Shown one piece after another: positions 3,364-31,379 of a stretch of DNA of 64,000 nt. Numbering within the stretch: the stretch's first letter is position 1; each line of letters opens with the position of its first letter. The position numbers were made by a program, and so were the translations under genes. The notes under the pieces are model-generated. The model ran no database searches and had not been told where the DNA came from. It saw only the letters and a program-made list of their open reading frames with translations. This DNA is from Escherichia coli. Its GTDB lineage: Bacteria > Pseudomonadota > Gammaproteobacteria > Enterobacterales > Enterobacteriaceae. The stretch is taken from NCBI RefSeq assembly GCF_003790525.1, contig NZ_CP033635.1. One strand, 5' to 3'.

Positions 3364-4728
3364 TTACGTGCAGATTTCGTAGCAAGGGATGTAGGCTGAG
3401 CCTGGCAACTTCATACGATGCTGGGCAACAAAACCCTGTAGCAGGTCATCCATACGACGCATAATCTCTTTATCGCCGTTGATTTTATAAGGACCAAACT
3501 CTTCAATGGCGCGAATACCGACTTCTTTTACGTTACCCGCCACAATACCGGAGAACGCACGGCGCAGGTCGGCAGCCAGCACTTCAACGGGTTGATCCGG
3601 GTAAAGCTTCAGATTAGCCATATTCTCGTGAGACGGCTCAAACGGCATTTGCAAATCTGGCGCAATGCGCATTGACCAGTTAAAGCTGTAGGCATCGCCT
3701 GTGTCGCGGCGATTTTCTTTCACCAGCGGCATCGATTTTTTCATCTGACGAGCGACTTCAGCGGCGTCATCAATGATGATGCGGTAATGGCGGCGCGCGT
3801 TTTCACCCAACGTATGCACGACAAACTCGTCCAGTACGCGGAAGTAGTCGGCGCTCTCTTTCGGGCCGGTGAGGAGCAATGGTAAAACCTGATCTTTGTT
3901 GGCCGGGTTCATTAAAATTCCCAGCAAATACAGCAACTCTTCTGCCGTACCCACACCGCCAGGGAAGATAATGATACCGTGAGCGATACGGACAAACGCT
4001 TCCAGACGTTTTTCGATATCCGGCATGATGATCAATTCGTTGACCAGCGGGTTAGGCGGTTCAGCGGCGATAATCGATGGCTCTGTCATACCAATAAAAC
4101 GACTGTCTTTGTAACGCTGCTGTGCGTGTCCGACCGCAGCACCTTTCATTGGCGCTTCCATCGCTCCCGGACCACAGCCGGTGCAGATATTCAGCTCACG
4201 CAGGCCCAGCTGATTCCCGACGCGACGGGCATACAAATACTCGTTTTCGTTAATTGAGTGCCCGCCCCAGCAGACCACCATATTTGGCGCTTCACCAACA
4301 TGCAGCGCGCGAGCGTTACGCAAGATGGAAAAGACCAGGTTAGTGATGTGGACGGAGTTGTCGAGATTCAGGTTGGGAAAACGAACGGTGTTATGGATTT
4401 GCCCGTAAACGAAGAGAATGTCGCGCAGAACCGCGAACAAGTTGGCCTGCAAAGCGCGAATAATTCGCCCATCGACAAAAGCCTCTTCCGGGGGATTAAT
4501 CAGTTCCAGCTTTACGCCGCGTTCACGGCGCAGGACGTTAATATCGAAATTTTCAAAACGAGACAGCAATTCTTTGCTGTTATCGGTCAAACTACCGGAG
4601 TTCAGTACGGCAAGTGAACAGTTGCGAAACAGTTGATAGAGGTCGCTGCTGGCGGTGCGTTTAAGCATATCCACTTCCAGCTGCGACAACATATCCATGG
4701 AGCCAAGCGGGCTAATATGTGTAATCAA
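3364..4728 (-). CDS. ppnN: LOG-family nucleotide 5'-monophosphate nucleosidase (YgdH/PpnN)
   Basis: 454-aa ORF with PGGxGTxEE LOG motif ([12 protein letters not shown]); conserved synteny with sdaC and queF. Confidence 0.85.
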
Positions 4729-4839: not shown

Positions 4840-5688
4840 TTATTGCCGAACCAGTCTTGTGGTCGATGGGACAAAATCGCTATTACTGCGCCACGGGTTA
4901 ATGTCCAGACCGCCACGACGGGTATAACGTGCGTAAACGCTCAATTTCTCTGGCTGGCAGAAGCGTAACAGGTCATTAAAGATGCGTTCCACGCACTGTT
5001 CGTGGAACTCGTTGTGATGGCGGAAAGAGACCAGGTAACGCAGCAGTTTTTCTCTGTCAATTTGGCGTCCACGATACTGAATTTGGATCGATCCCCAATC
5101 TGGTTGATGGGTGATCAGGCAGTTTGATTTCAGCAGGTGGCTGACGAGCGTCTCTTCTACTACTTTTTCGCCACTGGTGGCATTCTCCAGATAGTCAGTA
5201 GTGAATTCATAGTTATCGATAGTGATATCCTGGTCATCAATGCAAGTGCCATTGAAATGACCTATCGGTTGGCCTTCCAGTTCATCAAGACGATATAACG
5301 CCACGCTAACCTTACCCTGAGCGCAAGTGCTTAAGTCGCGCTCCAGCGTCTGGCGCACCTCATCCCAGTTATTAAAACGCGTCTGGTTAAAACTGTTGAG
5401 ATAGAGCTTAAAACTCTTCGACTCAATCAGATTTGCGCTGGTGTAATCAAGTTCAACATGACCGACGGCGACCTGCGGCAAACCTTTCGCATTCAGCCAG
5501 GAAAGTTCATATAGCGTCCAGATATCCGTACCGTGAAAAGGCAGGTTATCCGCTTTCAGACCCAGCGGATCGCGATTCAGACTACGCGGAACGCCTTGCA
5601 GTAGGCTGGCGTCATAGGTATCCCGGTAATCGGTTGATTTTCCAAGAGTCAGGCCCGCAAGTGCCTGATGGTTTGCATAAGAAGACAT
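4840..5688 (-). CDS. queF: NADPH-dependent 7-cyano-7-deazaguanine (preQ0) reductase
   Basis: 282-aa ORF, two-domain QueF architecture, conserved synteny. Confidence 0.9.
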
Positions 5689-23078: not shown

Positions 23079-24392
<1,314 letters not shown>

Positions 24393-24433
24393 GTCTGACT
24401 TTATCTGATTTAAAAATGCCAGCCTTCGGGCTG

Positions 24434-25859
24434 TAATGCCAGTCAGTTAAGCAACTGACTGGCTCTTTTTCGGGGCTGTGGGGTATTTCCAGGGCCTCTC
24501 CTTTACCACTCTCGGGAAGGCCCTTTCCCTTCTTGTCGGTAATTTCACAAGTTGTCCCATACTTGCAAGATCGCGCATCAGCTCCGGTATACGTCCCGGT
24601 GAAGCGCCCTGCAATGTCATCAGCATTCTCATCACCATTCCACATGATTCTGAGAAACTCAGTTGATTCGGCCAGTAACCTTTCAGATATTCCGCCATTT
24701 TAATCATCTGATATCTCACCAGATTATAAGCCAGTAAGACACCCCACAGCTCTTGCTCCACAAGCTCCGGTTTTTTACTTCTCAGCGTCAGCCTGCTCAG
24801 TTGCATCGTCTGTTTTATCTCCCTGTATCCCAGTTCGATTTCCCAGCGATGACTGTACAGATCCGCCATTTCTCCTCCGGGGAAGCGCATGGCGTCCGTC
24901 ATCGACGTCAGCAGATGGCAGACTTTTCCTTTGCGCGTCACGGTCAGCAGGCGGGCTGTCACTTCATTTCCCAGTCCCGGCCACTTTTTTCGTGCCTGCG
25001 GGCTGGTTTTCAGCTTCACCAGATGATCGCCTTTACCCAGTTTTCTGATCTCTTCATATTGCGCTCCCTTTCTGAGAGGTATCATCCAGTGGCGGTGTTC
25101 TCCCGCCAGGCTCCAGGCATTTAACAGTCCCAGTGAGTAATAACCTTTATCCATTAACGTCAGAGTGTTATCGCCGGTTTGTTCTATAAGTTGCTCAGCA
25201 AGCTCATTTTCGCTGTTCTTCATCGTGCCGAAGGCTGCAGCCGTCAGCAGATGGCTGGTCAGTTCCATCTGGCAGACCATTTTGACCTGCGGGTAGAGCG
25301 CCGGGTTCCCGGCATGTGTCTGGCGGGGGAAGGCTGCATCGTTCTCTGGTGTATCCGGTGTGCGCCAGAACACACCATCGATGGCCAGCAGGGTCAGGCC
25401 GCACCAGTGCGGATGCGGCGTGGCGTTATGCCAGAGCTGCGCTGTTTTCGTGAACACGCGGCGGACAGCCTCACTTCCCAGGCGCTGGCGGGCCTGAATA
25501 ACGGCACTGGGGGCAACGAAGGGGCGATTGCCCGGCAGCATGATGTCCAGGCGATTCACAATCTGGTGAAGAGGTTCTTTACGCTCAAGCGCCATGCCAA
25601 CAATACACCAGACCATCATTTCGAGGGGAAGACGGCGCTTGCGTAGCGTTACAGTACCTGATTCGGCAAGGCAACGAGAGATGAGTTCGGGGTCGAGGTA
25701 ATCCCCCAGAGAAGTCAGTGGGTTACGCAGAGAATCGTAACGGGATACCAGATCAAGAGCCTGTCCAATGTGCATAAAAAAATCCGGAAACAAGTGAGCG
25801 TTTCCGGATTCTTACACAGCCACTGGATCGGTCAACTGATCCTTAACTGATCGGCATTA
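24434..25859 (-). mobile_element. IS4 insertion sequence
   Basis: about 1426 bp; terminal imperfect IRs (taatgccagtcagttaag / cttaactgatcggcattac); flanked by direct repeat cagccttcgggctg (13-14 bp); contains DDE transposase. Confidence 0.9.
24447..25775 (-). CDS. insG: IS4 transposase
   Basis: about 442-aa IS4-family DDE transposase ([15 protein letters not shown]...); track start 25793 is a short extension. Confidence 0.9.
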
Positions 25860-25891
25860 CAGCCTTCGGGCTGGCATTTTTTATGGCTGAG

Positions 25892-26764
25892 TTACCAGCG
25901 GCCAGACGCGCCGCCACCGCCAGAAGAACCGCCACCTCCGTTAAATCCGCCGCCAGTTGAGCCGCCACCAGAACCGCCGCTGTCTGAATGATAACTTCTA
26001 CCTGATGCTTTTTTCTGTGGGACACATAACCAGGTAAAGACCATAATGATGGTGAAAGCAAAAAAGAAGGAAAATACAGCAATGGAAAAAGTTTGATCGG
26101 AGAACAGGAATAAATCTATAAGATAGACTGTTGAAATACAAACACTGCTTTTAAATGCCCGACAAAAATTATTGCCTTGATGAAAAAACCAGAAAGGGAA
26201 GAACATCACTGCAAATACCCAAAAAATAGCAAAGTAGTAATGATCACTGGAAGACGCTGATTCACTTTCTGAAGGATTAGACGAATATTGGTGTTGTGAA
26301 GTGAGTTGGTTATTCAAAGCGATTATAGCTAATTCTAATCCCTTAGCTAATTTTTGTTTTTTAAAGGCGGGTATCATGATGCTACGGATGATATTGCCAG
26401 CCAGAGCATCGGTTACCTTTTCTTCCAGCCCATAACCTACCTGGATGCGGACAGTACGATCCGACCAGGCAACAATGATCAGTATCCCATCATTACGTTT
26501 GGCATCTCCTAAACGCCAATTGTCAAAAACTCTTGTAGCATATTGTTCAATAGAATCGTCTCCGGTGGATGGCACTATTAATACAGCGACCTGTGCCCGT
26601 GTTTTTTGTGTAATATCCTGCAGCTGTTGTGTTAGTGATTGTTGTTCAGACGTGCTTAAGGTACCAGTAATATCGGTCACCTGTTGGCGCAGCTCCGGCA
26701 CAGCAATTTGCTGGGCAAGCACAGGAAGGCACCATAAAGTGAGTAGAAAAAGGATTATACGCAT
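25892..26764 (-). CDS. ygcG: TPM-domain membrane protein YgcG
   Basis: 290 aa from MRIILF...; signal peptide, TPM domain, TM segments, C-terminal Gly/Ser tail ending GGGGASGRW. Confidence 0.8.
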
Positions 26765-26769
26765 AACGA

Positions 26770-27918
26770 TCACCAACGGTCGGATGAACCGCCGCCTCCT
26801 GAAGAACCGCCGCCACCGCGGAAAGAATTTTTCGACGAAGAGCGAGAATGAGCATTACGATTCCCCGTTTTCCTGTTGCTTTTTTCTCCTGACCCCAGCT
26901 TAAGATTGCCAGTAAATTTGGCCACAATGATCAGCAGAACGATGCCAGCAATGGTTATTGGGCCGATAAAATGATCAATTAACCCAATAATTGTTGAGAT
27001 GAATGCTATATCTTTATTACTGGCGAATACCAGGCACCATCCCACAACAATTATCAGCAGCACGACAAACAATGAGTTTCGTTCGGATTGAGAAACCTGC
27101 TGAGTCGTCTTTTGTTTTTTCACTTTAGCGTTTTTATTTTTTGGGGCCAGCATCATAGGAAATACGCGATACATATGAAAAATTACCGCGAGACGCTGCC
27201 AGCAGGTTGCTGCGAAAAATAAACTAAAACAAACGAGCGATACCCGCCGAATGATGACATCATCCTGAAAGAAGAAAAACCAGACCATAGGAGTAATCAT
27301 CGATATCATCCATATGCCAGGCCCGGGACGGCTGGTAAATCGCCAGAGGACAACGATGGCAACGATCATCAGTAATGTCCAGGCAAGACATGGCAGCGAG
27401 CGTTGCGGATTAGCAAACAGATGATTGGCTAAAGCATCCAAAGGGCTAAGATTCGCTTTTATATAGGTAAACTGTGCGATGCCTTCAATTCCCTGCGTTA
27501 ACCCGGAGAAGAGATTATTTTTTTTGAATTCCGGTTGCATATGGTAATGAACAATTTGCGCAGCTTGTTCCGGTGGCAGCATCTCTTTCAGTCCATGCCC
27601 AATCTTCATTGACGCCAGCCCTTCCGGCCAAACGACGAGAATTAAGATACCTTCGCCGTACCGCTTCTCTCCAACGGGTTTCCAGTGATATAACCCGTAG
27701 CTCTGAGAGGCTGCAAGTTTAATGTTTTTGCCCCCTGTGGTCGGCGTAACCAACACGGCCACCTGGAAGTGGTTTTGCTGCTCGAGAGTCTGTAATTGTT
27801 GATTTAAAGCAGTTTGTTCTTCTGTCGTTAATGTCCCGGTTAAGTCAGTTACTGAAGGCAATTGTTCAGCGAATGCCTGGAAACCATATAGCATCAGAAG
27901 TAAGAGAAAAATACGCAT
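26770..27918 (-). CDS. TPM-domain membrane protein, divergent paralogue
   Basis: 382 aa; signal peptide, divergent TPM-like domain, several TM segments, Lys-rich linker, C-terminal [15 protein letters not shown]. Confidence 0.7.
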
Positions 27919-27932
27919 TTCAATTCCTTTTG

Positions 27933-28826
27933 TTACCAGCGCCCGGAGGCGCCACCGCCGCCAGATGAACCGCCGCCGCCGCGGAAATTGTCATTGTCGA
28001 ATGAAGAGGATGACGATGACGAATAGTGGGAGGAAGAATTACTTCTTGTATGGCGTGATGGCTGGTTGGTATTACGCATCGAATCCCGAACCTTTTTGCC
28101 GAAGGGAGTAAAAGCGATGGCGACAGCCAGGAACGGTGTGGCGAAGCAGAGTAATGTTGCGAGCACTCCCCAGCTTCCGCTGAAACCTGCTATAGGTAAA
28201 ACAAAGGCCAGTACAATAGCTGCGAAGCAAATCAGTCCCAGCGTTTTGATATATCCTCTGGCAGAAATAAACGTCAGTATTATCGCCCAGACTAACAAAG
28301 CCCACCAACCGCTAAAGGGCAAAGGGTGATCGGTCGGTGTTATCGTTGCTGAATTATTCCCCGTCAGGCGACTTTCAATATCGTTGATCCCCTTTTGTAA
28401 ACCACCAGCCAGGTCGCCTTTTTTAAATGCCGGAATAATACTGTTGCGAATAATTTTCCCGGACTGTACATCCGTAATAATACCTTCCAGTCCGTAACCG
28501 ATTTCAATACGCACGGTATGATCCTGCCAGGCGACTAACAGTAGAACGCCATCATCGCGGTCTTTATCACCCGGTTTCCAGCTATCGAATACCCGCGTTG
28601 CGTACTGCTCGATGGTTTCATCGCCTGTTGTATCAACCACTAACACGACCAACTGTGCGTGGTTTTTTTGCGTCAGGGCTTTAATCTGGTTGGTCAGGGT
28701 GTTTACTTCGCTGTTTGTTAATGTGCCGGTTAAGTCATTCACATACTTGGGGGATTCAGGTACTGGAATTTGTGTGGCAAACACAGATGAACAGAAGAAA
28801 GCCATAAGGAAGATAAAATTTCGCAT
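27933..28826 (-). CDS. TPM-domain membrane protein, close paralogue of YgcG
   Basis: about 297 aa from MRNFIFLMAFF; shares [11 protein letters not shown] and VAW-D-TVRI-GYGLE blocks with ygcG; C-terminal [15 protein letters not shown]. Confidence 0.75.
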   Translation of the reverse strand: MRNFIFLMAFFCSSVFATQIPVPESPKYVNDLTGTLTNSEVNTLTNQIKALTQKNHAQLVVLVVDTTGDETIEQYATRVFDSWKPGDKDRDDGVLLLVAWQDHTVRIEIGYGLEGIITDVQSGKIIRNSIIPAFKKGDLAGGLQKGINDIESRLTGNNSATITPTDHPLPFSGWWALLVWAIILTFISARGYIKTLGLICFAAIVLAFVLPIAGFSGSWGVLATLLCFATPFLAVAIAFTPFGKKVRDSMRNTNQPSRHTRSNSSSHYSSSSSSSFDNDNFRGGGGSSGGGGASGRW

Positions 28827-28839
28827 AGAACTTCCCCGC

Positions 28840-29442
28840 TTAATGCGCATTAGCATTCTGGCTAAAATCTATTGTTGGGGCTTTACTTACTGCGGTGACA
28901 TCATCCGGCAAATAATTTTTCTTTGGTGTGTAATCCATGACCTTTGCGGTTAATACAGCGGGGAATTTGCGGATAGTGACATTATATTGTTCAATGGCTT
29001 TAATATATCTTCCTCGCGCAACGGCAATTCTATTTTCACTTCCTTCGAGCTGTACCATTAAGTTTTGATAGAGTTCCTGAGCTTTTAACTCAGGGTAACG
29101 TTCACTAATTATCGTTAACTGACCGAGAGTGCGAGACACCTGCGCCTGGGCTTGTTGCCAGGCTTGTAATTTTTGCGCATCTCCCGGAGCTTGCTGAAGA
29201 TCGCTACTGGCGCGATTAGCCTGGCTACGTGCCAATGTTACGGCTTCCAGTACCTCTTGTTCATGGCTAGAATAACCTTTAATACTGGCGACAAGATTAG
29301 GAATAAGATCGGCGCGACGTTGATATTGATTCAATACCTCAGACCAGGAGGCGTTAACCTGCTCATCATAGGTTTGAATATCGTTATATCCACAGCCTGA
29401 TAAATTGACAATAAATATAATTACGATGAATATCCTGAGCAT
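28840..29442 (-). CDS. lemA: LemA-family lipoprotein
   Basis: 200 aa; lipobox LSGC at N-terminus; LemA proteins typically sit next to TPM-domain genes. Confidence 0.75.
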   Translation of the reverse strand: MLRIFIVIIFIVNLSGCGYNDIQTYDEQVNASWSEVLNQYQRRADLIPNLVASIKGYSSHEQEVLEAVTLARSQANRASSDLQQAPGDAQKLQAWQQAQAQVSRTLGQLTIISERYPELKAQELYQNLMVQLEGSENRIAVARGRYIKAIEQYNVTIRKFPAVLTAKVMDYTPKKNYLPDDVTAVSKAPTIDFSQNANAH

Positions 29443-29614
29443 GTCTATGTCCCTTTTAATTAATTCCTTAAAACATAATACGCCGCTTCATTTTATTCTT
29501 TATGATCTCATCCACTTTTTGCCTTAAACCTGCCTGTAACAGAATGTTAATAAGACATGATTGTTGTGGCAGGATCTGCAATAATTAACAATTATCCACT
29601 TCACAGAGAATGCT

Positions 29615-30286
29615 ATGCAGTACCCGATTAACGAGATGTTCCAGACCCTGCAAGGTGAGGGTTACTTTACCGGCGTCCCCGCCATTTTTATTCGTTTACA
29701 GGGATGCCCGGTTGGCTGTGCCTGGTGCGACACCAAACACACCTGGGAAAAGCTTGAGGATCGGGAAGTCTCCCTTTTCAGCATTCTGGCGAAGACCAAA
29801 GAGAGTGATAAGTGGGGGGCGGCGAGCAGTGAAGATTTGCTGGCTGTCATTGGTCGGCAGGGATATACCGCGCGGCATGTGGTGATTACGGGTGGTGAGC
29901 CTTGCATTCATGATTTGCTGCCACTGACTGACCTGCTCGAAAAGAACGGTTTTAGCTGCCAGATCGAAACCAGCGGTACTCATGAAGTACGCTGCACGCC
30001 GAATACCTGGGTTACCGTATCGCCAAAGCTGAACATGCGCGGCGGCTATGAAGTGTTGTCACAGGCACTGGAGCGAGCCAACGAAATCAAGCATCCAGTG
30101 GGACGCGTACGTGATATTGAAGCACTGGATGAACTACTGGCAACGCTGACCGATGATAAACCGCGAGTCATTGCACTCCAGCCGATTAGCCAAAAGGATG
30201 ATGCCACACGTTTGTGCATTGAAACCTGCATTGCGCGTAATTGGCGTTTGTCGATGCAAACACATAAATATCTAAATATTGCCTGA
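29615..30286 (+). CDS. queE: 7-carboxy-7-deazaguanine synthase (radical SAM)
   Basis: 223 aa with CxxxCxxC-like radical-SAM Cys cluster (GCPVGCAWCDT). Confidence 0.9.
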   Translation: MQYPINEMFQTLQGEGYFTGVPAIFIRLQGCPVGCAWCDTKHTWEKLEDREVSLFSILAKTKESDKWGAASSEDLLAVIGRQGYTARHVVITGGEPCIHDLLPLTDLLEKNGFSCQIETSGTHEVRCTPNTWVTVSPKLNMRGGYEVLSQALERANEIKHPVGRVRDIEALDELLATLTDDKPRVIALQPISQKDDATRLCIETCIARNWRLSMQTHKYLNIA

Positions 30287-30371
30287 TTTGATTATTCATC
30301 ATTAATATTTAACGTTCAGGTTGAAAAACAATCGCCCCGTTTTACAGGGGCGATGCAAGATAGTGACGGGA

Positions 30372-31379
30372 TTATCGGTAGCGTTTTTGTAGACTGGCAG
30401 GAAGATAACGCTGTAATGGGGATGGCGTTTCACCTTCAATCAGTTGCGAAATAAGTTCAAAGCAGTGAAAAGCAAGTTGGCGATTATCCTGTTGTATTGT
30501 GTCGATTCTTACCGAAAGTGAATCATACAAGTAATGATCATCAAAACTCGCCAGGTGGATTTTACTGTCGAGTAAATTATATTGGCTCATATAGCGCAGA
30601 ACGCCTTCCAGTAATCCACAAGCGGCAGTGAATAAGGCTTTAGGGGGACGTCCTAAACGAGCGCATAGCGCGGCAAACATTTCATAGCCTGAGCTCGGAT
30701 GATAATTACCGTGAATAATCCATTCAGGTTGTAGCGTTACTCCGGCTTGCTGCAAGCCTTGTGTAAATCCTTCCAGTCGATCGCGAGTCGGTGACAAACG
30801 GGGTTGTCCGCCCAGAAAATAGAATTCATCCGGGTGACTCCGTGCAATATCTGCCACCAGAGCGGCGGTGGGAGAAACAGAGTCAGTAATGACCAATGGC
30901 AATGTGCTGCCGTTCATGTGGCGATCGAACAACACAACAGGTAATTGCTCGCTAAGTTTTTGATAGTCATTATCATGCAGCATACTGGATGCGACGATTA
31001 ACCCATCAACCTGGCGGGCAATCATATTGTTCACCACCATTGTTTCCTGTGAAGGATTTTCATCAGTACAGGATATGAGGAGTTGGACTCCCGCTTCCCG
31101 ACACAATGTTTCCAGTTCATGGGAAAATACTGCAAATCCGTAGTTAGTGATTTCAGGAACGACGAGACCAATGGTGTGACTGCGGTTGTCCCGTAATGAG
31201 CGGGCATGAATGCTGGGCTGATAATGCTGCTGTTGGGCAATACTCAGCACACGCTCACGCGTTTCCTGCGCAACACGTAACTCTTTGCCACGACCATTGA
31301 GAACCAGACTGGCGGTTGCTTTCGACACTCCCGCCAGTTCAGCAATGTCTTTAATAGTAACGCGTTTGGTTTTTCTCAC
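30372..31379 (-). CDS. scrR: LacI-family sucrose operon repressor
   Basis: 335 aa; N-terminal HTH ([22 protein letters not shown]) plus periplasmic-binding-like fold; last gene of the scr cluster. Confidence 0.8.

Follow-up and report, generated by a model that had tools for sequence, protein, structure and literature searches.

The window analysed here is a stretch of 64,000 nucleotides from Escherichia coli (contig NZ_CP033635.1), 100% identical to strain SMS-3-5. Between eno (23094-24392, plus strand) and queE (29615-30286, plus strand) it carries lemA (28840-29442, minus strand; PF04011), the first gene of a lemA-TPM array, and then three TPM-domain genes, here called TPM_A, TPM_B, and TPM_C. 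TPM_A (27933-28856, minus strand; a 307-aa ORF) has lemA directly upstream and combines a TPM domain (E = 8e-41) with a TM region, a poly-Ser tract, and a Gly/Ser tail. TPM_B (26770-27918, minus strand; 382 aa; E = 4e-22) has a long multi-TM region before its tail, and the ygcG-like TPM_C (25892-26764, minus strand; 290 aa; E = 8e-38) has a TM region and a tail. All three domain matches are to PF04536 (TPM_phosphatase); an NCBIfam scan of the TPM genes returned no specific family, just weak sub-threshold matches to Psb32 and MamQ. At the amino acid level, the bodies of A, B, and C are 34-52% identical to one another.

The start of TPM_A is probably the ATG at 28826, as in RefSeq-style annotation, rather than that of the 307-aa ORF. 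The long TPM_A ORF and lemA overlap by 17 nt (within 28826-28856), and the ATG of TPM_C lies 5 nt past the TPM_B stop, inside the conserved TGGTGATCGTTATGCG (26764-26776); such tight junctions suggest translational coupling. The poly-Ser tract before the TPM_A tail (~27990-28020) differs in length among strains, with 7 residues in SMS-3-5 (the window) and in O157, 10 in MB49 (L001), 12 in isolate 127 (L004), and 9 in E. albertii (L009), which suggests local in-frame slippage. An IS4 element (24434-25859, minus strand) sits between eno and TPM_C and borders the C tail directly, lying outside the repeat system described below. Its 14-bp target duplication, CAGCCTTCGGGCTG, has copies at 24420-24433 and 25860-25873, and the insertion interrupts the stem of a terminator hairpin shared by eno and TPM_C (24420-25873). 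A query containing this IS4 was covered to at least 80% in 35 complete genomes. Apart from the unrelated IS4 transposase, no recombinase ORF was found within 24000-30500.

Each TPM gene ends in a tail repeat of 17 codons plus the stop, all on the minus strand: 25892-25945 in TPM_C (65% GC), 26770-26823 in TPM_B (67% GC), and 27933-27986 in TPM_A (76% GC). The tails are GC-rich (65-76%), whereas their genes are 43-48% GC. An earlier note on this DNA had described near-identical coding repeats at the three 3' ends. The positions and tail peptides are as it gave them, and "near-identical" suits the peptides, which share 14-16 of 17 residues between pairs, but not the DNA, which is 73-78% identical across 51 nt. 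The repeats are nevertheless significant at the nucleotide level. In the self dot-plot of 25880-28860 that the note had proposed, the three tail pairs are the top off-diagonal matches: C-A over 50 nt (84% identity, E 2e-10), B-A over 53 nt (79%, E 1e-7), and C-B over 47 nt (77%, E 2e-4). The 64-kb window also contains exactly three matches to the back-translated pattern GGN4-WSN2-GGN4, and 100 shuffles yielded none.

For A/B and for B/C, the longest in-register exact run between tails is 11 nt; for A/C it is 9 nt with the stop counted and 8 nt when the 17 codons alone are compared. Such runs barely exceed what a common peptide and codon bias would impose. The A/B run is the microhomology GAACCGCCGCC, at 27967-27977 in the A tail with its partner at 26804-26814 in the B tail (both minus strand). 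The longest run common to any tails is 14 nt, and it is out of register. A G-quadruplex or hairpin role for the tails was considered from the sequence and set aside; the G runs are just 2 nt.

When synonymous codons are drawn at random for the same peptides, the tails are expected to be 65-70% identical, and the observed identity is slightly above this (P = 0.04-0.11). Among the codons of the window tails that are capable of synonymous change, 4-7 out of 13-15 are identical. Since identity is this near to the codon-randomised expectation, the tail DNA repeat is in essence the trace left by a conserved peptide that is encoded with GGY codons.

That conservation reaches far beyond Escherichia. 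It was assessed with a representative-library search together with lemA-anchored loci, and the tail counts were read from the C-termini; a word-indexed protein search returned near-identical E. coli YgcG variants alone and is unsuited to the purpose. The tail consensus is F-x-GGGG-xx-GGGG-(A/S)-S-G-x-W-COOH, and the A, B, and C tails of the window end in (A/S)-S-(G/D)-R-W. At lemA-anchored loci of Gamma- and Betaproteobacteria, the TPM ORF beside lemA ends in ...GGGGxxGGGGASGxW in 69 of 80 cases. [quoted passage not shown] Judged from these sequences, the tail peptide is an ancient hallmark of lemA-associated, membrane-anchored TPM-domain (YgcG-type) proteins, and its conservation points to selection on the peptide.

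The three genes of the window likewise have a TPM domain, TM segments, and a terminal GGGGxxGGGG(A/S)SGxW, and the placement of TPM_A after lemA is the one seen in most Proteobacteria. What sets Escherichia apart is the number of copies. In the other Proteobacteria sampled, each lemA locus carries a single gene with the tail, at times accompanied by a short TPM gene that lacks it. In Escherichia, as many as three paralogs with tails stand in tandem, and their bodies are of four types (A, B, C, and D). In E. albertii NBRC 107761 (L009, ~4975-4983), the terminal Trp codon of TPM_B is TAG, and the protein ends ...ASGR.

One could argue instead that the repeats stem from recent duplication or from ongoing gene conversion among the paralogs, and not from selection on the peptide. 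The slight excess of identity over the codon-randomised expectation would fit, as would the patchy paralog-type substitutions in the tails of EC42405, 33E/O157, E. albertii, and a divergent Escherichia genome (L008). We nevertheless hold this to be very unlikely, given how few degenerate codons match in the window, how far the gene bodies have diverged, and that single-copy TPM genes throughout the Proteobacteria end in the same peptide with no paralog at hand for conversion. Concerted evolution of tandem paralogs is recognised by identity at synonymous sites, which is not what the window shows; elsewhere it is confined to local patches.

What the tails do at the DNA level was followed in 5,426 complete E. 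coli genomes. Junction-specific searches were carried out with chimeric queries, one per predicted junction. The query for an A/B deletion, composed of the TPM_A body, the tail, and the 5' end of TPM_C, gave a single contiguous match in each of 10 genomes (~0.2%), or 10 of the 1,114 genomes that bear the array. TPM_B is absent from all 10, and the A body is joined in frame to the end of the B tail, with the crossover within the A/B tails. Nine of them have O157-type alleles and one common junction. Against a three-gene O157 genome, FORC_044 shows a 1163-bp deletion whose crossover lies inside a 16-nt in-register identity, GAACCGCCACCACCGC. The tenth, strain 2017-02-2CC, has its crossover in the 11-nt GAACCGCCGCC, in the equivalent register on a different allelic background; the homologous block in the window is 27967-27977 / 26804-26814. 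Both junctions therefore have what defines a microhomology deletion, namely short perfect homology at the two endpoints with one copy kept (16 nt and 11 nt).

There were at least two independent TPM_B deletion events. Because the nine O157-type genomes share one junction, and may go back to a single event, just two recent independent events can be counted, in addition to the older junctions of L008 described below. It is extremely improbable that the loci without TPM_B result from faulty assembly, with tails that are just inert low-complexity sequence. GC-rich simple repeats can be error-prone in some sequencing chemistries, but here the deletion recurs in ten complete assemblies from various laboratories and countries, and there are two junction sequences, on different allelic backgrounds, both exactly in frame. 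Furthermore, the flanks of an O157 deletion locus (L006) are 100% and 99.8% identical to those of its three-gene relative (L005), and a repeat of 11-16 nt is unable to collapse 1.16 kb in long-read assemblies.

The remaining predicted junctions gave nothing in the 5,426 genomes: no true recombinant for the A/C deletion, none for the B/C deletion, and, with short-arm queries, neither a B-B duplication nor a D-to-C tandem junction. It should be noted that the A/C query did match 336 genomes of the lemA-A'-hyp type introduced below (span 1078 nt, 87% identity), which a true recombinant would outrank. Of the 1,104 genomes that carry TPM_B, 1,102 have just one copy. The reciprocal product was not seen; there are deletions alone, with no duplications beside them.

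Older crossovers can be read in L008, whose array is lemA-A-D-C. Its A and D bodies each continue into the 3' half of a B-type tail and a B-type stop/start junction, so that L008 adds two tail-located crossovers, not certainly polarised between gain and loss. Paralog-type patches are clustered in the tails of EC42405, L008, and E. albertii, with exact runs of 23, 30, and 40 nt. A more ambitious reading is that the array is a slow cassette-shuffling locus, and not simply a place of accidental deletions; the tail and the adjacent stop/start overlap would serve as a "handle" by which TPM cassettes of types A to D are swapped, with diversifying selection acting on these envelope proteins. We rate this as a long shot. 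In comparison with shufflons and silent-cassette antigenic variation, the TPM array shows no dedicated recombinase within 24000-30500, and its variants amount to just 10 of 1,114 genomes.

At least six architectures occupy the eno-queE interval in Escherichia: lemA-A-B-C, lemA-A-B-D, lemA-A-D, lemA-A-D-C, lemA-A'-hyp, and yqcG-ygcG. A locus may have three, two, or one TPM genes. Across the same 5,426 complete E. coli genomes, the K-12-type yqcG-ygcG is found in ~3,960 (~73%) and lemA-A'-hyp in 336 (~6%). TPM_B is carried by 1,104 genomes in the order lemA-A-B-third gene, the third gene being C, as in the window, in ~331 and the distinct paralog D in ~773. In total, D occurs in 783 E. coli genomes, including O157:H7 and the 10 two-gene genomes, and it is also present in E. 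albertii.

It is against this variation that the central proposal of the earlier note must be weighed. The tails were taken to be substrates for homologous recombination, with unequal crossing-over driving TPM copy number and explaining why strains differ at this locus. In this form the proposal is unlikely, and for the major haplotypes it is largely refuted. Strain variation is real, natural tail-to-tail deletions of TPM_B exist, and the L008 junctions sit in tails; to that extent the tails are indeed crossover sites and do change copy number. Yet in-register identity within the window never exceeds 11 nt, short of the ~25 bp of uninterrupted identity used here as the mark of a RecA substrate, and the copy-number survey that the note had called for yielded 10 TPM_B losses and none of the other deletions or duplications. 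The dominant haplotypes break elsewhere. Array homology in the K-12-type locus ends within the TPM domain (~26587) and where lemA begins (29410), and a tail remnant was looked for upstream of its ygcG and not found. In lemA-A'-hyp, 427 bp of unrelated sequence stand in place of B and C, and the C and D genes differ in their central 0.5 kb. The breakpoints of the major strain differences (K-12-type, lemA-A'-hyp, and C versus D) are not tail-to-tail.

Several features of these architectures are worth recording for annotators. The C and D cassettes have the 5' ~340 nt and the tail in common, with unrelated central TM regions (window 25955-26421 compared with L005 1614-2130 and L008 7853-8359). 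In the K-12-type locus, yqcG and the first ~180 nt of ygcG (L003, 3754-4084) are AT-rich and have no match in any of the loci compared. In place of TPM_B and TPM_C, the lemA-A'-hyp locus of MB49 (L001, 4603-4965) has a 120-aa ORF with no match in the NCBIfam scan; from lemA through TPM_A to queE, this architecture is ~89% identical to SMS-3-5, which is unusually diverged for E. coli. In EcPF5 (L002, 6093-8300), the array stops after TPM_B, truncated by fragments of ISEc45 and IS66, and unrelated genes take the place of lemA, TPM_A, and queE. This is an IS-mediated rearrangement, not a tail-mediated one.

Similarly, care should be taken with TPM_A. In O157:H7 (Balcarce_24.2; L005, ~3620-4527), an in-frame stop at codon 225 gives a 224-aa product. 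MB49 and isolate 127 have full-length TPM_A ORFs, yet RefSeq marks them as "incomplete; missing C-terminus" at the codon-225 point, and TPM_A is flagged likewise in L007, L088, and L089. The annotation of the truncated O157 protein seems to have been carried over to these genes.

Taken together, the observations lead us to favour, with good confidence, a reading in which selection on the peptide maintains the repeats and the tails then act as rare in-register microhomology crossover sites that delete TPM_B. Selection on the peptide, combined with a preference for GGC and GGT, would preserve three GC-rich (GGY)n runs of 50 nt each, all in direct orientation and spaced at 0.9-2.0 kb, and the similarity of the tail DNA in otherwise diverged paralogs would be a by-product of this, not of recent duplication. 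The tails supply the longest in-register microhomologies of the locus, 8-11 nt in the window and 16-40 nt in other lineages. Illegitimate or homeologous recombination could then occur there at low frequency, most likely through RecA-independent slipped or template-switch misalignment. A crossover between the A and B tails, being in register, yields an in-frame fusion of the A body to the B tail and removes TPM_B. Short patches of conversion between tails occur as well. Neither the length nor the identity of the window tails suffices for classical RecA recombination, so the events look microhomology-mediated, and we infer that the enzymology is RecA-independent; in lineages with 23-40 nt of tail identity, ordinary RecA recombination is possible. 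In-frame products would seem to be preferentially retained. The reuse of one block is plausibly explained by its being the best GC-rich in-register microhomology of the locus and by in-frame products keeping a normal tail.

There are precedents for such events. In Salmonella, Koskiniemi et al. (2012; PMC3386194) found that spontaneous deletions mostly have endpoint homologies of 6-15 bp and that short-homology, RecA-independent deletions dominate spontaneous deletion; they quote a RecA requirement of at least 25 bp (~25 bp) of homology. The TPM_B losses resemble these in their endpoints of 11-16 nt, in the single copy kept, in being deletions only, and in their kb-range size (1.16 kb). They differ in that selection on a peptide keeps the microhomology, whose copies are in register within tandem paralogs; this is why one site serves repeatedly and the genes are fused in frame. 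RecA independence is, for the TPM array, our inference. Azpiroz and Lavina (2017; PMC5426353) described how the microcin H47 island of E. coli is excised when imperfect direct repeats recombine independently of RecA. As there, the TPM repeats are extended, imperfect, and direct, with crossovers in the best-matching blocks. The H47 repeats, however, are non-coding attachment-like sites around a 13-kb island, whereas the TPM tails are the coding 3' ends of paralogs, for which neither a circular product nor reintegration is implied.

The interpretation given in the earlier note was right in kind, wrong in scope, and probably wrong in enzymology. What we describe is ordinary loss of a paralog through microhomology, in repeats kept in place by a conserved peptide, and no new mechanism. 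The effect is rare, being seen in ~0.2% of genomes. The catalogue of six architectures at the eno-queE interval should be of use for pangenome annotation and for the study of LemA/TPM envelope proteins. Beyond this, the array provides a natural example of how selection on a short peptide can preserve microhomology in tandem paralogs and thereby make a locus prone to recurrent in-frame gene loss.
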